Below are positions 17,433 to 47,842 of a stretch of 64,000 nt of DNA, one piece after another. The position numbers and the translations under genes were made by a program. Every line of letters starts with the position of its first letter. The first letter of the stretch is position 1. Source of the DNA: an uncultured Acidimicrobiaceae bacterium (lineage in GTDB: Bacteria; Actinomycetota; Acidimicrobiia; Acidimicrobiales; RAAP-2); assembly GCA_963717975.1 (NCBI GenBank), contig OY970351.1, positions 2,129,729 to 2,193,728 on the forward strand, in the 5' to 3' direction. Below the pieces are notes generated by a model that was not told the origin of the DNA, made no database searches, and was given only the letters and a program-made list of their open reading frames with translations.

Positions 17433-18169
17433 GGCGGTCGGCCGATGAACTGAACAAGATGCGCAAGGCTGGCAAGGTCGTTGCCGAGATGCACGAAGCG
17501 ACGCGCGCGGCGATTCGTCCGGGCGTGACGACGGCGCAACTGAACGACATTGCGGCCGAGGTCATCGCCAAGCGCGGCGCCCGGTCGAACTTCCTCAACT
17601 ACAACGGTTTTCCGGCGGTCATCTGCACGAGTCCCAACGACATGATCGTCCACGGCATCCCCGGGAACTACGTCCTGCGCGACGGCGACATCATCTCGGT
17701 CGACGCGGGTGCGATCATCGAGGGCTACCACGGTGACGCGGCCTACACCGCGGGCGTCGGCGATATCAGCGATGAGGCGCGCCGACTGATCGAGGTCACG
17801 GAGCGTTCTCTCTGGGCCGGCATCGATCAACTCAAAAAGGGCAACCGCCTCAACGAGGTCGGTCGTGCGGTGCAGAGGGTCGCCGAGGCGGCGGGCTATT
17901 CGGTGGTGCGCGAGTACGTCGGTCACGCGATCGGCACCGCCATGCACGAGACCCCGCAGGTCCCGAACTACTGGCCGGGTACACCCGGACCGACGTTGAA
18001 AGAAGGCATGGTCTTCGCCATCGAACCGATGGTGAACGTCGGCGGCTACGAGACGTACCTCTTGGACGATGGCTGGGGCGTGATGACCCAGGACGGCAAG
18101 CTGTCGGCACACTTCGAACACACCATCGCAGTCACCGACGACGGTCCGGAGGTCTTCACGGTCGCCTAG
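17429..18169 (+). CDS. map: Methionine aminopeptidase type I
   Basis: 246 aa. Metal ligands in DGDIISVD, HGD, FAIEP and EHT contexts. GTG start overlaps the adk stop. Confidence 0.95.
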   Translation: MRRSADELNKMRKAGKVVAEMHEATRAAIRPGVTTAQLNDIAAEVIAKRGARSNFLNYNGFPAVICTSPNDMIVHGIPGNYVLRDGDIISVDAGAIIEGYHGDAAYTAGVGDISDEARRLIEVTERSLWAGIDQLKKGNRLNEVGRAVQRVAEAAGYSVVREYVGHAIGTAMHETPQVPNYWPGTPGPTLKEGMVFAIEPMVNVGGYETYLLDDGWGVMTQDGKLSAHFEHTIAVTDDGPEVFTVA

Positions 18170-18810
18170 TCCTTCGGACGAACCCTGTCCTGTTGTCGTT
18201 GCGCGAAGAGTGCGGCCTCGGTGCGCCGCTGGAAGCCCAGCTTGGCGAGCAGGTTCGACACGTAGTTCTTCACGGTCTTCTCGGCGAGGAACAGTGTCTC
18301 GGCGATCTCGCGATTACTGAGTCCCTCGCTCAAGAGATCGAGGATGCGCCGCTCCTGCGGTCGCAGGCTGTCGAGGCGGATCTCCTCATTTATCTGACGA
18401 ACGAGACGTTCTCGCGCGCGCGCTACCTGTTCGCTCGTCAGGAGCATCTCGCCGTTCGCGACGCGCCGAATCGCCACGATCAAGTCCTCCCCGAGCACGT
18501 TCTTCAAGACGTATCCCTGCGCGCCGGCGAGGAATGACGCGACGAGCGCCTCGTTGTCCGCGAAGGACGTCAGCATCAGACAGCCGAGTTCGGGGCGGAG
18601 GGCCCGTAACTGTCGACAGAGGTCGACGCCGCTCCCGTCGGGCATGCGCACGTCAAGTACCGCGACGTCGATCAGCGAGATGTCATGGTCGAGCGCCGCC
18701 GCGAGCGAACCCGCCTGGGCCGCGACGTGAATGTCGCCCTCGGCTTCGAAGAGTTCTCGCAGTCCCCGGCGAACGATCTCGTGATCGTCGACCAGTAGGA
18801 GATTGATCAC
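18166..18810 (-). CDS. NarL/LuxR-family response regulator (no adjacent kinase)
   Basis: ORF 18166..19011 trimmed to GTG 18810 (VINLLLVDDHEIVRRGL). Receiver domain (DVRMPDGSG) plus LuxR HTH (LSNREIAETLFLAEKTVKNYVSNLLAKLG). Confidence 0.85.
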   Translation of the reverse strand: MINLLLVDDHEIVRRGLRELFEAEGDIHVAAQAGSLAAALDHDISLIDVAVLDVRMPDGSGVDLCRQLRALRPELGCLMLTSFADNEALVASFLAGAQGYVLKNVLGEDLIVAIRRVANGEMLLTSEQVARARERLVRQINEEIRLDSLRPQERRILDLLSEGLSNREIAETLFLAEKTVKNYVSNLLAKLGFQRRTEAALFAQRQQDRVRPKD

Positions 18811-18890
18811 GGAGCCGGTCGATTGTCGTTCAACGTTGGTAACGCCACCGACCGAATCATCGCATACTTGAAAATCGACCGTTCGGGTGC

Positions 18891-19553
18891 CTACTCTTCC
18901 TCGAAGTATCGCCAATGCCCTTCGGTGATCACTTCGACGCCGCCGTCCACGACCTGGATGGCGGTCTGATCGTCGATCGCGTACGCCGGCACCGGGATGG
19001 TCGCGGCCCAACGCTCGGCGTCGGCCATAGTGTTCTCGGGCAACGCTTCGTGATCGAGGTGCGGAAAGATGGCGAAGTCAACCAGGCCCAACGCCTCGTC
19101 GGGCACCTCCGTGTTCTTCCAGTTCCGGAAGTCCTCGCCGATGCACGGCGACATCACCATGCTCCCGCCGCTCAGGCCCACGTAGACCATCGCCGGCAAC
19201 GACGAAAAGAGGTCCGCCAGTCCGGACAGCCGCATCCAGTGGTTCAGATAGATGGCGTCGCCGCCCGCGACTAAGAGGACGTCAGCGGCCTGGACGCGCG
19301 GGACCCAGCGCTCGGCCTCGACGCTCGCGAGCGCGGCGAGTTCCAACACACCCAGGGACCTCCAACCCAACTCGGCCATCGGCGTCGAGGCCGTCCCCGC
19401 GATGAACTCATAGGCCCGAGTGCCTCCGGTCGCCCACATGGCGGTGGGGATCAAGAGGGCGTCGGACTCGGCGATCGGTTTGCCCAGGAGATCGACCAAC
19501 GCGTTTTTGATGCTTTGATTCTTGATGCCGGCGGAGGTGAGGAGAAGTTTCAA
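18891..19553 (-). CDS. Peptidase S51 (dipeptidase E-like) family protein
   Basis: 220 aa. MKLLLTSAGI... and GLSGGSMV nucleophile context. Confidence 0.75.
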   Translation of the reverse strand: MKLLLTSAGIKNQSIKNALVDLLGKPIAESDALLIPTAMWATGGTRAYEFIAGTASTPMAELGWRSLGVLELAALASVEAERWVPRVQAADVLLVAGGDAIYLNHWMRLSGLADLFSSLPAMVYVGLSGGSMVMSPCIGEDFRNWKNTEVPDEALGLVDFAIFPHLDHEALPENTMADAERWAATIPVPAYAIDDQTAIQVVDGGVEVITEGHWRYFEEE

Positions 19554-34691: not shown

Positions 34692-35176
34692 AGCACACGT
34701 GGAAGATCCGCCTCGCCGAGCGTCGTGACGTCGCCGAACTACTCGTGATCGAGGAGGCGCAGTTCCCCGAACCGTGGACCCGAGCGGATCTTGCTCGACG
34801 AGATCGAGAACACCGAGACGCGCCGCTACACGGTCGCGACCGAGAAGACGTCGACATGGTCGGTTACCTCGGGGTCATGTTCGTGCTCGAAGAACTACAC
34901 GTCAACACGATCGGCACCACTGCCGCAACACGAGGGCGGGGCATCGCGACCTCGTTGTTCGACGACGCGTGGGCCGATGCGAGAGTTCGGGGTATCAAGC
35001 GTGCGACGTTGGAGGTCGCCGTCTCGAATCAGCGCGCCATCGATCTCTACTACCGCTACGGGTTTCGTCCGGTCGGGGTTCGAAAGAACTACTACGAGAA
35101 GAGCAACGAAGACGCCCTCATCCTCTGGGCCGATCTCACGAGTGAGCCCTCTGACCTGCCCCGTACGCTGGACTGA
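34688..35176 (+). CDS. rimI: Ribosomal-protein-alanine N-acetyltransferase (GNAT); an internal ~60 nt appears out of frame
   Basis: The ORF is open, but the family-like stretch [18 protein letters not shown] (34791 frame) sits in a different frame from the flanking PEPWTRADL and [11 protein letters not shown]...RGRGIAT. Confidence 0.75.
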
Positions 35177-36184
35177 TGGGCGTTGTCCTCGGCATCGAGA
35201 CGAGTTGTGACGAAACGGCCGCCTCCGTCGTTGACGAGGAGTTTCACGTCCTTTCGTCGGTCGTCGAGTCCTCGATCGACCAGCACCGGGCCTTCGGCGG
35301 GGTCGTGCCGGAGCTGGCCGGTCGCGCGCACGTCGCCACCATCGGCCCCGTCGTTCGCCGCGCGCTTGCGCGACGCCGGTCTCGATCCGCGCAATCCGGC
35401 GATCTTGGGGATCGCGGTCACGAGCGGACCGGGACTTATCGGTTCACTGCTCGTCGGGCTCTCGGCGGCCAAGGCCTACGCCCTGGCCTGGGGTGTGCCC
35501 TTCGTCGGGGTCAACCACCTCGAGGGCCATCTTTTCGCACCCTTGCTGGAGAATCCGGACTTGGACTGGCCGCTCATGACCCTGTTGGTGTCCGGTGGCC
35601 ACAGCCTGATCGTGCTGCAGTCAGGACCGGGTCAACACGTGGTTTTGGGCGAGACGATCGACGACGCCGCCGGCGAGGCCTACGACAAGGTGGCTCGCTG
35701 GCTCGGTCTCGGCTATCCCGGCGGACCGGAAATCGACCACTTGGCCCAGTCCGGCACCGCCGGATCCCTGAAACTCCCCCAGTCGATGACCGGCGAGGGC
35801 TACGACCTCTCCTTTTCGGGCTTGAAGACGGCGGTCGTTCGCGCGACCGAGCGGCAGCACGATCTGCCAATCGCGGACGTCGCGGCGTCGTTTCAGGCCG
35901 CGGTCGCCGAACAGCTCCTTCGAAAACTCCGAAGCGCCCTGGAACACCACCCCGTGCGCGGTCTCGCGCTCGCCGGCGGCGTCGCCGCAAACTCCGCACT
36001 TCGCGTCGGTGTCACCGAGCTGGCCCAGGAGTTCGGCGTGGCGGTTCATCTACCGACGATGGCCATGTGCACCGACAACGCCGCAATGATCGCGGCCGCC
36101 GGCACGTACCGCCTCCGTCACGACGGTCCGAGTTCCTTCGATCTCTCGGCCCGGCCGAACTGGCAGCTGGCGGACGTTCGGTGA
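35176..36184 (+). pseudogene. tsaD: tRNA N6-adenosine threonylcarbamoyltransferase TsaD, one frame disruption near 35358
   Basis: [19 protein letters not shown]...AGRAHV is in one frame. [17 protein letters not shown]...GVNHLEGH...SGGHS...[10 protein letters not shown] is in the frame of ORF 35183..36184. Confidence 0.85.
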
Positions 36185-36792
36185 GCGAACGGTGGAGGGC
36201 GTTGGAGATCGCGGACTGCGACTCGAATCCGCTCGTGCAGTTCCGACGATGGTTCGACGAGGCGATCGACGAGATGCCCGAGCGCGACGCGGTTTCGGTC
36301 GCGACCTCGACGCTCGAGGGACGGCCGAGCTCGCGGATGGTGTTGCTTCGACACGTTGACGATCACTCCGTCGGTTGGTTCACGAACTACGAATCGCGAA
36401 AGGGCGGCGAGCTCGCCGTCAACCCCTTCGCGTCGATTCTCTGGTACTGCGAGTCACTCGGTCGCCAGATTCGCATCGAGGGTGCGGTCGACAAGATGAC
36501 CGCCGAGGAATCCGACACGTACTTCGCGACGCGCGCTCGCGACAGTCAACTGGGCGCGCACGCGAGTGCTCAGAGTCACGTGATCGCGAGTCGAGAGGAA
36601 CTCGTCGAACGTGTGCGCGCGTTCGACGAGACGTTCCGCGGGCGTGACGTTCCCCGACCTGCGAACTGGGGTGGCTACCGCTTGACACCGAGTCGATTCG
36701 AGTTTTGGCAGCATCGCGAGAACCGACTACACGACCGCGTCGTCTACACGCTGACGAGTAATGGTTGGACGCTGCAACGTCAGGCGCCTTGA
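36181..36792 (+). CDS. pdxH: Pyridoxamine 5'-phosphate oxidase
   Basis: GTGA overlap with the tsaD stop. PSSRMVLLR...FTNYESRKG...IRIEG...YF..R...SQLGA...WGGYRL.P..FEFWQ. Confidence 0.88.
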
Positions 36793-38006: not shown

Positions 38007-38036
38007 GGAGTCAGGCTAACCACGCCGTGATCTCTG

Positions 38037-38063
38037 TTGGCACTCGGGGCCTTAGGCTGCTAA
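38037..38063 (+). promoter_or_regulatory. CIRCE-like HrcA operator 1 (imperfect)
   Basis: TTGGCACTC-N9-GGCTGCTAA, compared with consensus TTAGCACTC-N9-GAGTGCTAA. Overlaps a possible -35 TTGGCA / -10 TAAATT. Confidence 0.55.
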
Positions 38064-38064
38064 A

Positions 38065-38091
38065 TTGGCAGTCGGAAGATTCGAGTGCCAA
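38065..38091 (+). promoter_or_regulatory. CIRCE-like HrcA operator 2
   Basis: TTGGCAGTC-N9-GAGTGCCAA, 20 nt upstream of the groES ATG. Confidence 0.65.
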
Positions 38092-38110
38092 AAGCACAGG
38101 AGGCAAGAAA

Positions 38111-38407
38111 ATGAAGTTGCACCCATTGGAAGACCGCATCGTGGTTCGTCCGGACGTCGCCGAAGCAACCACGGCATCAGGCCTGGTCATTCCCGACACC
38201 GCGAAGGAGAAGCCGCAGCAGGGTGAAGTGTTGGCTGCGGGTCCCGGACGTCGCAGTGACACCACGGGTGATGTGATTCCTACCGGCGTCAAGGTCGGCG
38301 ACACGGTCGTGTACTCGAAGTACGGCGGCACCGAGATCACCATCGACGGCGAGGACCTTTTGATCCTGTCCGGCCGCGACGTACTGGCAACGATCGCTAA
38401 GAAGTAG
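38111..38407 (+). CDS. groES: Co-chaperonin GroES
   Basis: ORF 38027..38407 trimmed to ATG 38111 (SD GGAGG). [11 protein letters not shown]...GEVLAAGPG. Confidence 0.96.
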
Positions 38408-38427: not shown

Positions 38428-40077
<1,650 letters not shown>

Positions 40078-40112
40078 TTACTTGACCCCCCCCGGGGGGG
40101 TAGGGTACTCTC

Positions 40113-40149
40113 AAGAATCCGAGTCGTTCGCGACTCGGATTCTTCATTT
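40113..40149 (+). terminator. Rho-independent terminator of groES-groEL
   Basis: AAGAATCCGAGTCG-ttcg-CGACTCGGATTCTT, a perfect 14-bp stem, followed by CATTT. Confidence 0.85.
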
Positions 40150-40355
40150 GGAACCGTATTCGATCGTCCGATCGTTGAGCGTTCGATCGCCGCGCCCAGC
40201 TAGCAGATGCCGCGACTGGATTCGAAGGCTCAATTAGGGTCCAGACGAGCGTTCTTGTTCTCGATACCTCGGATTCTCTGATTTGACCAGATTCGAAGTC
40301 ATTTGACGAGTACGAAGCCGCTGATCCTTTAATTACTTGGGTATTGGGGAAAGTC

Positions 40356-40371
40356 CTCCGGTCCCATCAGG
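40356..40371. repeat. Core copy R1
   Basis: CTCCGGTCCCATCAGG. Confidence 0.9.
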
Positions 40372-40627
40372 AAGAATGGAACAAATATAGGATTCGTTGG
40401 AATATCAACGTTTTCTACGTCTTTAAGGATGGATTCCAGACCTAGGGTCACCTCGGGGCCGAGTTGGGTTCCGCTTGATTCCCACGTCGCGGCGAATTTC
40501 GAATCCCGACTTGCCGAAGCACCTCGATCACATGGAACCTGCTTTCGCCTCCCACGAATGACCCGAAGAGAGGCGCAATGCGACAGTCTGCCCGCTTCCA
40601 GTGATTTACTGGTGCAACTCGGCTTGC

Positions 40628-40643
40628 TTCCGGTCCCATCAGG
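40628..40643. repeat. Core copy R2
   Basis: TTCCGGTCCCATCAGG. Confidence 0.9.
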
Positions 40644-40913
40644 GATAACACTCTCATTCATGGAAAGTCAGAGGTTTGCCAGAGAAAGACGGCCATTTGG
40701 GCGGCAGAAGACCGACATTAGGTGGATCTGGAGGCCGATCTTGACTCCCGCAGTTGCTCCATGGGGCCGGCAGTTGTCGTCGCCGCAAGACCGCGAGCTG
40801 GTCACGAACTTTGTTCTCAATTGGACGCGCCAAAGAACCAATCTGGGTGCTTCTGGACTTGGTCAGGTCGGAATCGACCGATTTGGTCGATTCATTGGGT
40901 TCCAATCCATATG

Positions 40914-40929
40914 TTCCGGTCCCACCAGG
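40914..40929. repeat. Core copy R3
   Basis: TTCCGGTCCCACCAGG. Confidence 0.9.
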
Positions 40930-41179
40930 AAAAACAGAAACGCACTGAATACTTGGGATCTACGGGCTCAGGGCACCGTGACATGGATTTCGGGCTTCGT
41001 TTGAGGGCCAATCAGACGATCTACGCACGGGTTGAGGGCCTGGTGCCAGGGCTGGAAGATCCCTCCGGATACGGATGTCGGTCTCAAACCTTCCCTTTGA
41101 CGGAATTCCAAGAATGCGTTTACGTCACAGGGTTCGAAGTATCTCGTTTTGGCCCAATTACTGGACTCCGTACCCAGTG

Positions 41180-41195
41180 CTCCGGTCCCACCAGG
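41180..41195. repeat. Core copy R4
   Basis: CTCCGGTCCCACCAGG. Confidence 0.9.
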
Positions 41196-41445
41196 TATTT
41201 CAGTCTGGCACTTCATTCGCCCGACTTTTCAAGGAGAATCGCTCTCAGCCGCGAAATTTCCGCCATATTCCATGAGTGCGAGGTCACACGTACGGACGCG
41301 GGAAAGGTTGTCTACAGGCCCCAAAAGTCTGATTCGGGCCCGTCTCGAATCGAAAAGGAGACAGCTGGCCTCAACTCTGATAATCCACTCACTTTCAGCC
41401 CAAGTTGGACGCGATATTCGGACTTTAGAGCCACAAGAGGTCATG

Positions 41446-41461
41446 TTCCGGTCCCATCAGG
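41446..41461. repeat. Core copy R5
   Basis: TTCCGGTCCCATCAGG. Confidence 0.9.
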
Positions 41462-41783
41462 GAAAACCGATATTTACTGCAAATCACTGGATCTATGACT
41501 TTCGAGCGATATTGGGTTCCTTTCGAAGTCCTGCAAAATGAGATGATCCGACGAAAAGGACCGCGGCACATGAAATCCAATGCCAGCATCGAATTAGCTC
41601 GGATTTATCCGAGATCACTGGATTCTCGGCGATGGACGTGCCGGACGTCCAAATGTGACGGCCCCAACACGCCATAGAGAGATCCTCGAACGCGGGTCGA
41701 CAAGGGAGGGGATTCACTCCAAGTCGCTGTGATTTGCCGGTAAAATCGTAACTCGCGGCGATTGCTGGCATTTTCGGAGGGTA

Positions 41784-41799
41784 CTCCGGTCCCATCAGG
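41784..41799. repeat. Core copy R6
   Basis: CTCCGGTCCCATCAGG. Confidence 0.9.
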
Positions 41800-42066
41800 A
41801 AAAATGAAATTACTGTTTTCGGACCAGTAAACCCTTGTATTTCAATGACGATCGGTCTCAGGAACCCGCTTTTTGTGGGGATCGAGCGTGTCACGGGATA
41901 CCCGCCGCGGATCGTTCGAACACAGTGCCAAATGGCGGATCATGGTCATTGAAGTCGTCCAAATTCCCATTCTTTCGCTGCATCCAAATGGCCGAATCGA
42001 TCCCAACGCGGAATCGGAGGCCGGATTTGCACCCTTAAGGCGAAATACGGACTCTTCTGAGGTGTG

Positions 42067-42082
42067 CTCCGGTCCCATCAGG
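42067..42082. repeat. Core copy R7
   Basis: CTCCGGTCCCATCAGG. Confidence 0.9.
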
Positions 42083-42480
42083 AAGAACGAAATCGCCGTA
42101 CGGGCTCTCAAAGGGCATATTTCGGGCCTTCTTCGACCTCGAATTGCGCAAATTGGTGAGATCTCCAACTCGTCGGTTCGCCTGATTCTCATCCACGAAC
42201 GGCATCGACGGATGCGGAGCGATCATTGCAGCTTTTCGAAGAGGGGGGTGCCCAGGAGGACGAACCATCAGATCGGTCACCCATAGCGTGGTCGAATGTC
42301 TGCCAACGGCTGTGCGATGTCGCGCAGCTGCAAAACGGGTCTCGACGGCCTTCCAATCGGTCAACTTCATCACGACCGGGGGACTGAAATTGGCCTCTGG
42401 TATGTATCAAATGGCGGTGAAAACGGTTGGAAGTGGAAAGGACCTAAAACTCAATGAATAACTGGAGTCTTCAAATACGG

Positions 42481-42496
42481 CTCCGGTCCCATCAGG
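42481..42496. repeat. Core copy R8
   Basis: CTCCGGTCCCATCAGG. Confidence 0.9.
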
Positions 42497-43031
42497 TAAA
42501 ATAAGCTCTACGCCTCTTGTCCGACATTTTCCCTGATTTTATTGGGAAAATCCAAGTAAAGGTCGAAGTTCATCTGGAGGCAATGACTCAGTCTCACTCC
42601 ATGAGATCGAGTAGCCCAAGTTGGCAATGTAATGAAAACCGTGCCCGTCCGTTGCACTACTAGGGCACGACCATGGCTTGGAAGTCCCAAGTCGCAAGGA
42701 GCTTTAGGACTCCTAATCTGACTTGAAATGAGCGAATCCCTCCGGTTGGCCTGGTTCCGATCCCTGCAGGCGCATTAATCCTCCTCGAGGCGGAGTCGTG
42801 AGCTATGGCCTGGCCAAATCGCTTCGGAAGTAGCTGATTTTCGCCTACTTCGGTCGGGTAAGCATTCCAGTCGACGGCGAGGACTGAGAATCGCCGATTT
42901 CTTGACCGGGACCCCTCGTTTTCAGGGTGTGCCCCAGGATTAGTTCGTCAAGGTCATCGTTCATGACCGTCTTAGGTATCTGAGCGATTTTTGGTGTGAT
43001 TTCAAGACTTTTAAGCGGCCCAACTCGGTCT

Positions 43032-43047
43032 CTCCGGTCCCACCAGG
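43032..43047. repeat. Core copy R9
   Basis: CTCCGGTCCCACCAGG. Confidence 0.9.
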
Positions 43048-43543
43048 GATATTACGCGTTTGGACAATCACCTAATGAACGCAAGGTAACTGCGCGATTT
43101 AGCCTGTTCTGCCGGCGATCCTTGAGGAATCTTCGGTTCTTTGGAACCGGAGATCCTCCAACGGTATTGAACGGATCGGCCAGGTCAATCTCGAACCAGA
43201 GACGACTCACTTGGTGCACAACACAAAGTGGCATCGGCGACTCCTAAAGCGAATCACCCGAATCCCCGCCCGCCTCTTCGCGCCCCTTGGTGAAGATCTT
43301 GGAAACTGCTCGAAGTGCAGTGTTCAATCTCAAGTTGCGATGGATGTCTCCGAGACTCAGAAATCTCCACCCTGGGGACCCGACTGATTCACTGGTCCGA
43401 ATTTCGAGGATTGATGATGCTCGACGAAGCACTCTCGTACTTTCGCGAATAGGCGACTCTGCGCGCTGATGGTCGACGTCCAAACGGGACCAGAAAGCCA
43501 CTTTTCGTCTCCAATGACACGAAATCGGCTTGTCAGGGGGTCG

Positions 43544-43559
43544 CGCCGGTCCCATCAGG
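43544..43559. repeat. Core copy R10
   Basis: CGCCGGTCCCATCAGG. Confidence 0.85.
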
Positions 43560-43906
43560 GATGTTGAATTCAATACGATCGTCAATGCGCGGTGATATGG
43601 CGCAATCGGTGGGATAACTTGCCGGTGCAATATTCCTGATGCGACGGGGATAGTCGCCCAGTGACGTTGTTTTGGGCTAACGAGGTCGATTATTGATCCG
43701 TCAGACGGGCGCCATACGGGCAACGACGACCGAATCCTCCCTCAGCGACACCAACGTCAATGCCATCTGATTCGAGGCTTTTCATGCCGGTGGCGCTTCC
43801 CGGTCAAACTCATCGCGCGATCGGAGACGTCGGGGGGATGGGGTTGGAACCGGGTCCACCCAAACAATCGAAGGTCCGGGCTCTCCGTACGTTCGGAGTC
43901 TCGTCA

Positions 43907-43922
43907 CTCCGGTCTCATCATT
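43907..43922. repeat. Core copy R11 (degenerate, 13/16)
   Basis: CTCCGGTCTCATCATT. Confidence 0.5.
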
Positions 43923-44149
43923 GATTCGGACGCATGACTGGCTACGACCAACGTCTCGTGCCGCAGTGCGCCATCGAATGAACACCTGGACAGAATCCGG
44001 GACTCCGGCCAACTGTCCGGCACCGGTGAGCTGGAAGGCGACGCTGAGAAACTCTTCGCAACGTGCCGACTGGCAAATCACAACCATTTGACAACGCGGA
44101 AACTTTCTTGTAGAACTAATGCCTGCAAGGGCGGAATTGGGGACTGGAA

Positions 44150-44566
44150 GTGTCAATCACCAAAGGTTCGCCGAAGCTCGGCGAACACGCCAAGCCGTCG
44201 CAGCCCTACGCGTCCGTGACGGAAGATTCGTTACGCGGCCTCTACGTTCAGACCAGCATCTCGCGTGCCTCGCGTGCCGCGGAGCTCGGTCGTTTCCTCA
44301 ACATCGACGAGACGACCTTCGCGACGCCCAAGGACGGGCGTGCTCGAGACCATGGCACGACGAGCGGGCCACACCACGAGAGCGATGCGACCGGTCCCAT
44401 CCTCGATGCCGTCGTCGCTGACTCGAAGGCCGACCTGGAATATCTCCACGTCCCCGAACCCGTCGGTGGGGTCCAACAGTGGTGGGCGCGGATGCTCATC
44501 GCGACGCCATCGCATTCCCGCCCGGAATCGCCGGATCACTCGACTCTCAAAGTGACGGCTTCATAG
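44150..44566 (+). CDS. Hypothetical protein (weak call)
   Basis: 138-aa ORF with GC-rich third codon positions where GC content rises again. No recognisable family. Contains an 11-nt partial match to the repeat core. Confidence 0.35.
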   Translation: MSITKGSPKLGEHAKPSQPYASVTEDSLRGLYVQTSISRASRAAELGRFLNIDETTFATPKDGRARDHGTTSGPHHESDATGPILDAVVADSKADLEYLHVPEPVGGVQQWWARMLIATPSHSRPESPDHSTLKVTAS

Positions 44567-44846
44567 AACGCAAGGGCGTGATCGAGGAGCAGACCCCAAC
44601 CAAGTGCTCCACGATCCGATACGGCTCACTGGTCGAGCAGAGTAAGTCAATTACTCGGAGTTGAATTAGCCTGCTCGACCAGTTCCGTTGGGACCGTACT
44701 CAGGGTTATCCCTGTGGCGTGCGTTTGGTGTGTGCTTGGTACCATGAAGCCACAAGTGGATTGATGTCCATGATCGGTGCCTCGAAAATGGCGTGGGCGC
44801 CGGCGGGCGATGAATGTTCGGTTCATAAAAGAGATTGGGAGACAAC

Positions 44847-45293
44847 GTGTTATTGACACGAAAGATTCGAGTCGTGGCGGTCGCGGGCGCACTGAGCGCC
44901 GGAATCTTGACCGGTGGCCTGATGAGCGTCGGTGGCGCGAGTGCCGCCGCGACACCGAAATTAGTTGTTACGCCGTCCACCGGTTTAACGAACCACAAGA
45001 CCGTAGAAGTCTCCGGAACCGGTTTTAAGCCCAAGGACCAGGTGTACATCACGGAGTGTCAGGCGACCGCCAAGGGCGAGGCGGGCTGCGACATCTTCGT
45101 CGCGGTCCCCGTGAAGATCAGCGCCACCGGCGTGCTGCCCAAGACGAAGTTCAAAGTCGTGACCGGCACTGTGGGCAACGGTAAGTGCGGCACCACGGCG
45201 GCGAACCTGAGAAAGTGCGCGGTGAGTGTCGGCAATGCCGCGGGCGGTGACAGCGCGGTCTTCAAGATCGTCTTCGCCGCGCCCAAGAAGTAA
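44847..45293 (+). CDS. Secreted neocarzinostatin-family (enediyne apoprotein-like) protein
   Basis: GGGAGA SD plus GTG 44847. Signal peptide ending ASAAAT. VTPSTGLTNHKTVEVSGTGF, C-x9-C, and KCGTTAANLRKCAVSVGNAAGG resembling the DCTTAACQVGLSDAAGNG region of neocarzinostatin. Confidence 0.65.
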   Translation: MLLTRKIRVVAVAGALSAGILTGGLMSVGGASAAATPKLVVTPSTGLTNHKTVEVSGTGFKPKDQVYITECQATAKGEAGCDIFVAVPVKISATGVLPKTKFKVVTGTVGNGKCGTTAANLRKCAVSVGNAAGGDSAVFKIVFAAPKK

Positions 45294-45468: not shown

Positions 45469-47109
45469 ATGACCGAAGACCTGGCCCCCCCTTCCACCTC
45501 ATCTCGAGAGTCGAGCCAAGTCCGCGATGTCATCATTCGGGGCATTCGCGCTCACTTCAGCTTCGCGGCGTTACTGATGATCCTGTTCCTGACGTTCCTG
45601 GACAATACGGTGGCGAGCGCCGTACTGACCAGCGTGCAGGCGAAACTCCACGCGAACGTGTCGCAGCTGCAGTGGGTGGTCGGAGGGTACGCCCTCGCCT
45701 TCGCGAGCCTGATGTTGATGTTCGGCGCCCTGGGTGACAACTTTGGTCGAAAGCGTCTGATGTTGATCGGCGTGGCGATCTTCTGCGGTGGCTCCGTGGT
45801 CTGTGCGATCTCGGTCAACCCCAGTGAACTCGTTATCGGGCGCGTCATTATGGGTATCGGGGCCGCCGCGTCAGAACCCGCGACCCTGTCGATGATCCGT
45901 CACATCTACCCCGATCAAAAGGCCCGGGCGCGCGCGCTCGGCGCGTGGGCGGCGGTGTCGGGACTGGCGCTCGCGATGGGTCCGGTCATTGGCGGGATCT
46001 TGGTCGGCATCTGGTCGTGGCGGGCGGTCTTCTGGTTCAACCTCCTGTTCGGCGCCCTGGCGTTCATCGTGGCGGCCATCGCGCTGCCCGAAAGCGTGAA
46101 CGCGATTCGCAAGCGCGTTGACTACGCCGGGTTCTTCTTCGGCGCGGTCATCCTCGGCACCGCGACCTTCGCCTGCATCCAGGGTGAGCTGTCGGGCTAC
46201 GAGAGCGGCTGGGTCATCACCCTGTTCATCGTCAGCTTCCTCACGGTGCCGATCTTCTACCTCTGTGAGAAGAGTGCGAAGAGCCCGATGCTCGAGTTGG
46301 GCTTCTTCCGTCGTAAGTCCTTCACCGGATCGGCCTTCATCGCCTTCGCGAGCTACTTCTCGATCTTCTCGATCTTCTTCTTCGTCGCGCTGTACCTGGA
46401 GGTCGTGGCCTCGGTCAGCGCCTACGGCTTGGCCCTGGACTTCTTGCCGTTGCTCGGCGGCATCGTGGTGGCGTCGCTCTTCACCGGCCGTTGGGTGGGC
46501 CGCGTCGGCTCCCGCGTTCCGATGACGGTCGGCTGTCTCTTGGCCGGGCTCGGCGTCATCTTGACGTTCGCCGCGATCGGACCCCACGTCGGCGTGTCGA
46601 TACTCGGCTGGACCATGGGAATCGCCGGCATCGGCTTCGGCATCGTCATCGTGCCCGTGAACGCGACGGCGCTGTCGAGCCTGCCGGCCGCGAACTCCGG
46701 TATGGCCTCGTCGGCCGTCAACACCAGTCGCGAGCTCGGAGCCGTCGCCGGGGTGGCGATCCTGGGTTCGATCGTCAACGGACAGCTCACCGTGAATCTC
46801 ACTCAGCGACTCATCCAGATCGGCGTACCTGCGTCCTATCGCCAACTGGTCATCTCGGCCGTGACGACGGGACAGACCTCGGAGGCCGAAGCCAAGCTCA
46901 ACCCGGCGACCCGCAAGGCCTTCGGTCCGATCATCAAAAAGGTCGTCAACGCCGCCTACGGCGCGTTGACGCACGGCCTCGATATCGCACTCGTCGCGTC
47001 CGCGGCGCTGCTGCTCTTCTCGGCCGCGGTCGCCTACGCGACGGGGACGGCGGAGAAGATCGAGTTGATCGACGTCGTCGAAGTGGAACCGCTCGCGGCG
47101 TTCACCTGA
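45469..47109 (+). CDS. MFS transporter, DHA2 (EmrB/QacA-like, 14-TM) drug:H+ antiporter family
   Basis: 546 aa. LDNTVASAVL...GALGDNFGRKR motif. Many TM segments. Confidence 0.88.
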   Translation: MTEDLAPPSTSSRESSQVRDVIIRGIRAHFSFAALLMILFLTFLDNTVASAVLTSVQAKLHANVSQLQWVVGGYALAFASLMLMFGALGDNFGRKRLMLIGVAIFCGGSVVCAISVNPSELVIGRVIMGIGAAASEPATLSMIRHIYPDQKARARALGAWAAVSGLALAMGPVIGGILVGIWSWRAVFWFNLLFGALAFIVAAIALPESVNAIRKRVDYAGFFFGAVILGTATFACIQGELSGYESGWVITLFIVSFLTVPIFYLCEKSAKSPMLELGFFRRKSFTGSAFIAFASYFSIFSIFFFVALYLEVVASVSAYGLALDFLPLLGGIVVASLFTGRWVGRVGSRVPMTVGCLLAGLGVILTFAAIGPHVGVSILGWTMGIAGIGFGIVIVPVNATALSSLPAANSGMASSAVNTSRELGAVAGVAILGSIVNGQLTVNLTQRLIQIGVPASYRQLVISAVTTGQTSEAEAKLNPATRKAFGPIIKKVVNAAYGALTHGLDIALVASAALLLFSAAVAYATGTAEKIELIDVVEVEPLAAFT

Positions 47110-47842
47110 CGTCGCTCGCGGCGACGGGGACTGGTCGCCGTCGCGGCTCGAGGAGTTCGACCGCGACCATGACCGAGAAACAGACAAAGAAGATCGGTTC
47201 GACGAACGCGCCGAATCGGTCGGTCAGGTACGCGACGCCGAGCAGGGGATAGCCGATCGCCATCGCGACCGCGGTCGCTTTGACGGCGATCGCGACCCAG
47301 CCCTGATCGTGCTGCGTGCGCCTCCAGGCGAAGTAGACGGCCGTCGTCATGAACCCGAACTCGAATATCCCGGAGATCACGTGGAGGTAGTGGTGCAACG
47401 GAAGTCGCAGGTGCCACTCGGCGCTGCGGCAGGCCGCGCTCAGTCCTTCGGGGCAGGCGTAGGAGAAATGGCCACCGACCGCGCCCGCGACCGCGAAGAG
47501 CAGCAACCATCGCCACTCCTTACGCTTGCCCTTCGGGCCCCAGGGACCGCGAATCAGGAACGCGACGAACATCACGATGCCCGCCGCGAGGTCTAAGTGC
47601 GCGAAGAGCGTCGCGTCCGGTCGTCCGGTCGCCTCCAGGTCACTGAAGAACTCGTCGGTGCTGATAAGCAGGTTGGTCGCGACGAGCACCCAGACCCACC
47701 AGTTGTAGAGGACGATTCCGACGAGACCCAGGAACTGGGCGACGAAGAGCCGAAGACTGTAGGCACCGACCAATCGAACGTCACTGGCTGGCGCAGGGGA
47801 TTGAGCTTCGGCGTCGATTCCCTCGCCGTGACTCGCGCTCAT
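47102..47842 (-). CDS. Integral membrane protein (possibly DUF998-like)
   Basis: 246 aa, about 6 hydrophobic segments. The family assignment is tentative. Confidence 0.6.
   Translation of the reverse strand: MSASHGEGIDAEAQSPAPASDVRLVGAYSLRLFVAQFLGLVGIVLYNWWVWVLVATNLLISTDEFFSDLEATGRPDATLFAHLDLAAGIVMFVAFLIRGPWGPKGKRKEWRWLLLFAVAGAVGGHFSYACPEGLSAACRSAEWHLRLPLHHYLHVISGIFEFGFMTTAVYFAWRRTQHDQGWVAIAVKATAVAMAIGYPLLGVAYLTDRFGAFVEPIFFVCFSVMVAVELLEPRRRPVPVAASDVR

Follow-up and report, generated by a model that had tools for sequence, protein, structure and literature searches.

A repeat array downstream of groEL in uncultured Acidimicrobiia shares an invariant 14-nt element with the genes of a secreted-protein operon

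Why should a short sequence be kept unchanged, copy after copy, in a region of a bacterial genome that holds no recognizable gene? This question is raised by a 64-kb stretch of DNA from an uncultured Acidimicrobiaceae bacterium, hereafter called the window (the whole stretch analysed, in which cores are read on the plus strand unless stated otherwise), where a first-pass annotation had pointed out an array of direct repeats downstream of groEL. The results described here showed that the array is real and conserved, and its origin is explained: it belongs with gene-derived repeat arrays that lie next to surface-protein genes, the parent gene being here named surf. As a whole, the best explanation, which we hold tentatively and at somewhat less than even weight, is an array of surf-domain relics combined with a 14-nt DNA recognition element.

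The 14-nt core of the array, CCGGTCCCAYCAGG, was found in exact form ten times in the window (0 expected), all within the array. The first-pass annotation had described ten identical copies of a 16-nt repeat and one further copy matching at 13 of 16 positions. The count of ten holds for the 14-nt core, and the 13/16 copy was recovered, but the 16-mer YTCCGGTCCCAYCAGG is exact at nine sites (plus strand, 40356, 40628, 40914, 41180, 41446, 41784, 42067, 42481 and 43032; 0 expected from 100 shuffles), whereas the tenth exact core, at 43546, is preceded by CG instead of YT and so matches the 16-mer at 14 of 16 positions. The ten start-to-start spacings given in that annotation were reproduced exactly, and its eleven listed copies all lie on the plus strand. 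The 551-nt spacing corresponds to two units, because a decayed core lies in between (Table 1). The array and its decayed copies all lie inside a 4.07-kb non-coding stretch past the groEL terminator; the region had been called gene-free, and indeed groEL ends at 40077, the next conserved gene starts at 44150 and the ten longest open reading frames (ORFs) have no Pfam match. The G+C content is 0.51-0.55 in the array and 0.61-0.67 in its flanks. The 27-bp module containing the core is GTGCTCCGGTCCCAYCAGGAAGAACGA, and the 14-nt element, written as a search pattern, is CCGGTCYCAYCAGG.

Relatives were sought in genome and metagenome collections with a pattern of two cores separated by a gap of 245-275 nt (start-to-start 259-289 nt), which matched two Acidimicrobiaceae metagenome-assembled genomes (MAGs; L001 and L002) and eleven metagenome stretches. 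Near-identical strains were removed and loci reached via neighbouring proteins were added, giving seven distinct arrays: the window, L001, L004 (the same strain as L002), L005, L009, L014 and L021. One metagenome match, L008, was rejected as an array; L008 (10650-11064) and L019 are unrelated low-G+C (0.36) phage contigs whose own ~70-nt direct repeat happens to contain CCGGTCTCATCAGG, and they are chance matches. Scans of viral contigs brought up only an unrelated phage of this kind. Absence or lack of conservation in relatives, combined with transcriptional silence, had been named beforehand as an outcome that would count against the feature. Instead, at least seven assemblies of related Acidimicrobiia, from genomes or metagenomes, were found to carry the array; in the six besides the window, of which two are Acidimicrobiaceae MAGs and four are contigs from peat or bog, it lies downstream of groEL. 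The cores are on the groEL strand in all five assemblies in which all or part of groEL is present in the retrieved sequence. The groEL genes are 88-91% identical in DNA sequence among the window, L001 and L004 and 81-83% identical to that of L009; the spacers are unalignable between genomes, and alignment is limited to ~25-60 nt around each core.

Together the seven arrays hold 45 exact cores and eight with one or two mismatches, with 3-17 cores per array. About 15% of the cores are degenerate, and decayed cores lie inside the longer spacings. Over all arrays, core position 6 is C in 40, T in 12 and A in one copy, and position 9 is C in 35 and T in 18. The spacings range from 260 to 692 nt, with a mode of 260-292 nt (20 of 46) and none shorter. 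Forty-one unique units could be aligned without gaps and with fixed internal spacing, which brought out a module of blocks flanking the core: block A, (c)AATGATTAyCnGG, at -30 to -18; GTGCT at -5 to -1; and AAnAAYGA at +14 to +21. Conservation drops with distance from the core. On the minus strand, which is the surf-sense strand (see below), the module reads TCGTTnTT-CCTGRTGRGACCGG-AGCAC-N12-CCnGTAAT/GATAATCA. Between paralogous units of L005 the similarity stops exactly at the core end, implying that crossovers at cores have shaped the array, whatever its function. Six recently duplicated units of L009 differ from one another by 26-39% and show no three-base periodicity, and are thus non-coding. 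The first-pass annotation had also judged that this is not a plain tandem satellite, and Tandem Repeats Finder reports no array, because the units are too dissimilar; pairwise local scores of the flanks are at background, except for a few recent duplicates in L009, L005 and L001, and a satellite was therefore rejected.

In L004, L014 and L021 the array lies next to surf, a gene of 620-860 codons that is convergent to groEL and encodes a secreted multi-domain protein. In these three genomes surf itself holds two or three further exact cores. On the coding strand of surf the core reads CCT GAT GGG ACC GG, encoding Pro-Asp-Gly-Thr-Gly; in the more general form CCTGRTGRGACCGG it supplies codons for P-D/G-G/E-T-G. 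All genic cores are in one reading frame, and the surf products occur in length variants of 739, 621 and ~860 aa. The surf operon also includes a Big_3_5/RTX-like gene upstream of surf and a gene for a third secreted protein; NCBIfam and PDB sequence searches with the operon proteins found only RTX-type repeats, in the Big_3_5 protein. The AlphaFold model of the surf homologue P0139 (mean predicted local distance difference test score 83.8) is all-beta and resembles strings of Ig-like or macroglobulin-type beta-sandwich domains. In this predicted structure PDGTG occurs three times: residues 316-320 and 550-554 lie in loops, and residues 811-815 lie at a hairpin turn of the last domain (~770-861).

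Two side observations concern the C-terminal part of surf. Orthologues share the motifs PDGTGAL and GQS, but the four to five residues separating these conserved motifs are hypervariable (TVAT, EIQP, KIEP, SVLP and SIVN among others), and this loop may be under diversifying selection. In addition, two surf genes appear to be damaged at or after the C-terminal site: in that of L014 (4509-6374, P0145) the usual ...TITLSS end is lost and the frame reads on toward the array, and the C-terminus of the product P0133 is frameshifted, reading through the core (..TWWHRR..).

The ~55-65-nt module around the array core proved to be homologous to the segment VSPDGTGALxxxxGQS of the surf C-terminal domain. 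L015 and L020 are distant relatives without an array, in which the MFS transporter is ~71% identical to that of the window and surf is ~53% identical to that of L004. A hidden Markov model (HMM) built from the window's ten modules matched these array-less genomes best at the PDGTG site in the C-terminal part of surf, aligning over 58-68 nt at E=1.4e-7 and 9.6e-7, and HMMs from all arrays hit the same site in L015 and L020 (E=3.6e-9 and 4.6e-9, over 64-67 nt). In the reverse search, profiles of gene 3' ends against the arrays, homology was confined to about -45 to +60 relative to the cores. At the sequence level, the surf site of L015 reads CCTGATGGGACCGG AGCAC TCACTGTTGCGA CCGGACAATCATTG, encoding PDGTGALTVATGQSL, and the L009 array units read CCTGATGGGACCGG AGCAC N12 CCGGATAATCATTG, in which CAA (Gln) has become TAA (stop). 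The remaining ~200 nt of each unit have diverged beyond recognition, and no reading frame is kept. In L004, 286 nt separate the genic core from the first array core, and the modal unit of 260-292 nt equals the length of the last surf domain (~90 codons). From this distance and this agreement in length we infer that the array consists of decayed tandem copies of a domain segment. It is highly probable that the array is what remains, in non-coding form, of tandem copies of the last beta-sandwich domain segment of surf, and that the operon has gone from the window locus.

As to that loss, no surf homologue was found within the 64-kb window. The order of genes to the right of the array (small ORF, neocarzinostatin-family gene, MFS transporter, DUF998 gene) is common to the window and L022, and in L022 it lies downstream of surf, indicating that the surf operon is missing from the window locus. 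From position 44069 rightward the window aligns to L022 with 75.6% identity over 4 kb (blastn), and in L022 the equivalent of 44069 comes after a 9.5-kb segment holding the surf operon. Since the operon is absent and ten cores are intact, the array has outlived the operon at this locus; the same absence is why the link to a surface protein was missed in the first-pass annotation. L022 and L017 have neither the element nor the array. About 5 kb from the surf locus of L022 there is an IS605 OrfB/TnpB (Cas12f-like) gene (17887-19206). L005 carries, beside its last array core, a ~100-nt surf coding fragment in the ancestral orientation (2312-2420; compared with the 3' region of L004 surf); its complete surf gene is inverted, and the C-terminal site there has two compensating indels (PMGPG, not PDGTG). 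An origin of the module as a chimera, through inversion between the Big_3_5 and surf sites, was considered and rejected: the match of block C to one Big_3_5 site is weak, and the upstream flank of surf itself accounts for that match equally well.

The distribution of the 14-mer was determined in the 64-kb window and in the retrieved loci of six relatives (4-23 kb each), where it was seen solely in the surf operon and the adjacent array. In the surf genes of the array-less L015 and L020 it stands at the same three positions (in L015, two exact copies and one with a single mismatch). The Big_3_5 genes of L015, L020 and L021 hold an exact 14-mer in inverted orientation, encoding PVPSG. The operon mRNA therefore has perfectly complementary 14-nt stretches, 1.8-3.3 kb apart. 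The 14-mer sites in Big_3_5 are at 2825-2838 and 3365-3378 in L015, 8613 and 9153 in L020 and 7798 in L021; the gene also holds a second, 13/14 copy, which overlaps a PGGTG motif.

The codons used at these sites were then compared with those used elsewhere in the same genes. All 13 of the 13 P(D/G)GTG motifs in the surf genes of five genomes are written CCT-GRT-GGG-ACC-GG, a codon set that the codon usage of these surf genes would predict at a frequency of 0.0046. Loops of the sequence PDGTV, PDGTP and PDGTA use CCC-GAC-GGC or other codons, and third-position identity at conserved residues between surf genes is 0.47-0.62. The fixed synonymous codons at PDGTG imply that the 14-mer is maintained as DNA or RNA, and not merely as a peptide.

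What holds for the genes appears to hold for the array. The parsimonious reading of the sequences is purifying selection on a discrete 14-nt element, because the spacers are saturated with change and yet 14 contiguous bases are identical in ~45 array copies. The boundary of perfect identity is sharp, and the same 14 nt are found at internal gene sites with unrelated flanks. Gene conversion is disfavoured as the cause of this identity because it needs more flanking homology than exists. The flank consensus of the array, TCGTTnTT and AGCAC, is shared across genomes and differs from the flank of the genome's own gene.

A putative sequence-specific factor may read the 14-mer on duplex DNA, with the array as a cluster of its sites. 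We put this forward as a possibility with rather less than even odds, and recognition of duplex DNA is favoured because the element is kept in either orientation and in coding as well as non-coding DNA. Under this proposal, the 14-mer would predate the array, which is consistent with its presence in the genes of the array-less L015 and L020; its synonymous positions are fixed in the live genes, in the two to three sense copies of surf as well as in the inverted copy of Big_3_5, and the non-coding array keeps it just as strictly. The reader would be a protein or a guide-RNA complex encoded elsewhere. Next to the surface-protein operon, the array would offer 3-17 closely packed high-affinity sites and could act as a nucleation platform or as a sink, influencing transcription or recombination of the locus. 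With the cores as the only homology left between units, the units would duplicate, be deleted and turn mosaic through crossovers at the cores.

Several observations weigh against this combined explanation. No regulator or recombinase is conserved beside the locus, and among the proteins encoded at the loci no reader of the site was identified. Transcription-factor sites are not usually so strict as to be invariant at 14 of 14 positions, and the element has only weak palindromic symmetry. The internal gene sites lack the flank consensus of the array, so that "the same site" strictly holds for the 14-mer alone. The L004-type contigs are more than 99.5% identical and differ at one of 312 module positions against 43 of 2368 spacer positions, many of these variants probably being sequencing errors, and polymorphism is too low to speak for or against ongoing selection. 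Finally, the preference for a domain-repeat origin over repeated duplication of the gene 3' end together with its 3' untranslated region rests on the unit length and on the homology from about -45 to +60.

If the element is nevertheless what it seems, a locus-specific 14-nt "address" shared by surface genes and a pseudogene-derived array could be a previously undescribed control system, in which the array serves as antisense or decoy, or else as a platform whose sites a guide RNA or protein would read; we consider this possible, at rather less than even odds. Such a system would set the expression or rearrangement of a secreted beta-sandwich-repeat protein in uncultured peat Acidimicrobiia. 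It would be a natural case of a nucleotide-level signal that overrides codon choice (CCT-GAT-GGG-ACC, 13 of 13) and is kept after the gene has decayed, and one in which selection at the protein level can be separated from selection at the DNA or RNA level without an experiment. It would also point to a protein, guide RNA or antisense RNA acting on a surface-protein locus of an abundant peatland lineage. For annotation it would counsel caution, since a 4-kb "empty" and unalignable region may be under strong selection whose meaning is visible only through relatives that retain the parent gene. A known case of a fixed oligonucleotide kept inside reading frames, where it imposes peptide and codons, is given by the DNA uptake sequence of Neisseria and the uptake signal sequence of Haemophilus. 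Those sequences occur genome-wide in thousands of copies, whereas the 14-mer is confined to the surf operon and its adjacent array in the loci covered here.

An antisense or sponge RNA ranks second, after recognition on duplex DNA, and we regard it as unlikely. A groEL-sense RNA, arising when transcription of the strongly expressed groESL operon reads through or from weak internal starts and carrying 3-17 copies of CUCCGGUCYCAYCAGG, would pair with surf mRNA at its PDGTG/PGGTG sites and so lower the output of the surface protein, for example in heat shock; transcribed as a 3' trailer of surf, the array would instead act on Big_3_5 mRNA, competing there for the complementary site. In favour, no gap interrupts the invariant block, and the only substitutions tolerated exchange one pyrimidine for another, which G-C or G-U pairing would predict. 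A perfectly complementary partner is present in the same operon (Big_3_5 sense versus surf sense), and in the five assemblies with groEL in view the cores keep the orientation of groEL, regardless of the inversion of surf in L005 and of its absence from the window. Moreover, a group of surf genes with ~70% identity, which includes those of the array-bearing L014 and L021, mostly has PGGTG at the C-terminal site, and the G,G sequence could pair with every array variant. However, a strong groEL terminator precedes the array, and signals of transcription are lacking in the array: sigma-70-like promoter sites number 0 against 2.7 expected, terminator-like sites number four against 5.1 expected, and no GC or AT skew hints at transcription. 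Nor was there any consensus fold: module folds gave no consensus structure on either strand (mean z-scores -0.6 and -0.2), and RNAalifold found no supported helix in 34 modules or in the six L009 paralogues. In L004 and L021 most array cores have C at position 9 where their own genes have A, leaving a central C-A mismatch in the duplex. When the module was scanned for RNA duplexes across the 64-kb window, no target elsewhere in it scored better than the shuffled control.

It is improbable, in our view, that the cores are kept as short homology anchors, or as sites for a recombinase encoded elsewhere, for varying surf, whether by adding or losing domains, by exchanging the C-terminus or by converting segments of surf with array units as donors, even though much of the anatomy invites this interpretation. 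The surf C-terminal domain is the source of the units, which in L004, L014 and L021 follow the 3' end of surf directly, keeping its orientation and register; the single reading frame of the genic cores, the length variants of surf and the mosaic breakpoints at cores fit as well. The hypervariable stretch of surf that follows PDGTGAL has its counterpart in the variable N12 between two conserved blocks of the module, and the lower G+C and the unrelated spacers are as in cassette arrays. What is missing is coding capacity. Stop codons in frame 0 of the variable segments number 6 of 240, against 5 and 6 of 240 in the other frames, an in-frame TAA replaces the Gln codon in most L009 units, and codon periodicity and stop-codon depletion are absent from the array. 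The open frames after cores on the minus strand are inconsistent, in line with the earlier observation that no frame is consistently open across units. The repeats are direct, so that an exchange with the gene would delete and truncate; there is neither a linked recombinase nor a recombinase-type site architecture; and the array persists where the operon is absent. A donor library for the hypervariable loop was rejected on the same stop-codon counts. None of the three explanations offered in the first-pass annotation holds in its original form. As recombination sites, the cores do show crossovers, but without the architecture or the linked enzyme; a silent-cassette store comes closest in origin, since the units do come from a surface-protein gene, but they are without coding constraint.

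In anatomy the locus is nearest to the silent-cassette or pseudogene arrays beside surface genes and to the orphan modules of rhs and cdiA, and it fails both on coding capacity. The vls cassettes of Borrelia are flanked by 17-bp direct repeats, and pilS of Neisseria is likewise a donor array. The donor sites of Treponema tprK are silent donors for antigenic variation (PMC7593977, PMC8480903). With these systems the present array shares a tandem, promoter-less layout by a surface-protein gene, an origin in one portion of that gene (58-68 nt aligned, E=3.6e-9 to 1.4e-7) and a short conserved sequence common to array and gene with unique sequence between. It differs in that the unique parts are free of coding constraint and are not kept in frame or stop-free, the conserved part is the unit centre and not the flanks, the direct repeats lie downstream of the gene, and the array survives without the gene at the locus. 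Orphan C-terminal modules lie downstream of rhs and cdiA genes (PMC3967940, PMC4927057). There too, direct repeats of a short coding piece follow a large secreted-protein gene, with unrelated DNA of lower G+C between them, and recombination at the common piece can fuse gene and orphan. In contrast, those orphans encode intact toxin tips and immunity genes, whereas the ~275-nt units described here encode nothing, having no ORFs or Pfam matches, and keep homology upstream of the common piece as well; an Rhs or contact-dependent inhibition orphan-module array was rejected accordingly.

The absence of any present function, with a tandem-domain pseudogene decaying and its cores refreshed by short-patch gene conversion from live surf paralogues, appears equally hard to credit. 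The origin is pseudogene-like (stops, low G+C, loss of frame), ~15% of the cores are degenerate with decayed cores in the longer spacings, and conservation falls away from the core. RecA-mediated conversion, however, usually needs more homology than the 14-19 nt available. The sharp boundary is identical in ~45 array copies from seven assemblies and at internal gene sites with unrelated flanks, the array flank consensus across genomes differs from the flank of its own gene, the cores are intact in the window with no donor gene nearby, and rare codons are fixed in the live genes themselves.

Independent small RNA (sRNA) or small-peptide genes, each with its own promoter in which minus-strand block A (GATAAT, AGTAAT, TAAAAT) would be a -10 box and the core an upstream element, are very improbable: an A/T-rich hexamer does stand at a fixed 17-18 nt past CCGGAG on the minus strand, the R in CCTGRTG does give ATG or GTG, and copy number and tandem layout are like those of multicopy sRNA families, but block A is explained by homology to the surf GQS codons (ACC GGA CAA TCA), sigma-70-like promoters fall short as stated above, the transcribed part would be unit-specific and unconserved, and neither ORF conservation, codon periodicity nor an RNA structure signal was found. 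Extracytoplasmic function, sigma-28 and leaderless promoters were rejected by eye for misfits in spacing or consensus. The well-known multicopy tandem families LhrC1-5 and Qrr1-5 have conserved promoters, terminators and folds; the array resembles them in its several tandem copies with a short invariant, seed-like stretch, but no promoter, terminator or fold is detectable and Rfam is negative. The idea of paralogous sRNA genes sharing a promoter or 5' end, also raised in the first-pass annotation, was accordingly abandoned, the conserved block being a coding relic.

Other classes were tested and rejected, and here the exclusions made in the first-pass annotation were borne out. Clustered regularly interspaced short palindromic repeats (CRISPR) have repeats of ~23-50 nt and spacers of ~25-75 nt of uniform length; the invariant repeat in this case is 14-19 nt with spacings of 260-692 nt, and no cas gene is found among the neighbours (groES/groEL, MFS transporter, neocarzinostatin-family gene, DUF998). 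The spacers have no match in phage or plasmid collections or elsewhere in the window, and capture of foreign DNA was rejected. An attC site is an imperfect palindrome of 55-140 nt with R''/L''-L'/R' boxes that folds as a single strand, and integron cassettes usually carry one promoter-less ORF; clusters of attC without an integrase are known as CALINs. The array is similar in having same-orientation repeats that are alike within a lineage, unrelated segments between them, a chromosomal position and no adjacent integrase. It has no attC-like palindrome, R/L boxes, single-strand fold or intI, no consistent cassette ORFs, and a conserved block homologous to coding sequence, and neither an integron nor a CALIN fits. 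An insertion sequence or miniature inverted-repeat transposable element would bring terminal inverted repeats or subterminal hairpins, target-site duplications, and a transposase or dispersed copies. It was excluded by the lack of terminal inverted repeats and of a transposase; the motif is confined to the array within the 64-kb window, and copies in relatives are found only at this locus.

Recognizable RNA families are likewise absent. Rfam 15 gave no match at the gathering score in the whole window or at E<=10 in 40050-44200, and ARAGORN found no tRNA or tmRNA. A likeness to hammerhead CUGAUGA was discarded, as the essential A positions are variable and Rfam gave no match, and one to 5S rRNA or signal recognition particle RNA was discarded for few shared bases and the same Rfam result. 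A hairpin or dyad (block A pairing with the core 3' end; TTCCTGG-N5-CCGGAR) was judged inconsistent between units by eye. The core motif was not found in the searchable literature.

The coordinates of the array and its neighbours in the window are collected in Table 1.

Table 1. Features of the array locus and its flanks in the 64-kb window.
Feature	Position	Strand	Remarks
groES	38027-38407	+	Pfam Cpn10
groEL	38440-40077	+	Pfam Cpn60_TCP1
C8/G7 palindrome CCCCCCCCGGGGGGG, then groEL intrinsic terminator	40085..40150	+	inverted repeat I8, 100% complementary
Array, ten exact 14-nt cores	40326..43567	+	module ~-30 to +22 around each core
Exact core starts (each +13)	40358, 40630, 40916, 41182, 41448, 41786, 42069, 42483, 43034, 43546	+	
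Decayed core CCGATCCCTGCAGG, 11/14	42757..42770	+	274 and 277 nt from neighbouring cores
Inverted degenerate core with its 3' flank, 12/14, CCCGTCGCATCAGGAATATTG on minus strand	43635..43648	-	inverted repeats I2, I3, I9
Last degenerate copy CTCCGGTCTCATCATT, 13/16	43907..43922	+	
Right edge of lineage-specific stretch	43923..44068	.	blastn
Conserved 138-aa ORF	44150-44566	+	
Neocarzinostatin-family gene	44835-45293	+	
MFS transporter	45469-47109	+	
DUF998	47102-47842	-	

On the left, groES/groEL is the conserved neighbour of the array in all seven assemblies, synteny being shown for L001, L004, L005, L009, L014 and L021. The groEL terminator has a perfect 14-bp stem (40113-40144) followed by a T run, and the arrangement of palindrome and terminator is also found in L001, L004, L009 and L014. 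The array starts ~210 nt past this terminator in the window, and the range over the arrays is put at 250-480 nt. A seeming "empty site" right after groEL was dismissed as a coincidence found only in the window. Further upstream, an ORF at 35176-36792 (PNPOx frame) has a short match to the TsaD N-terminus (aa 24-66), and an ORF of tsaD length lies in another frame at 35183-36184; this could be a tsaD frameshift, an overlap or a long spurious ORF of high G+C.

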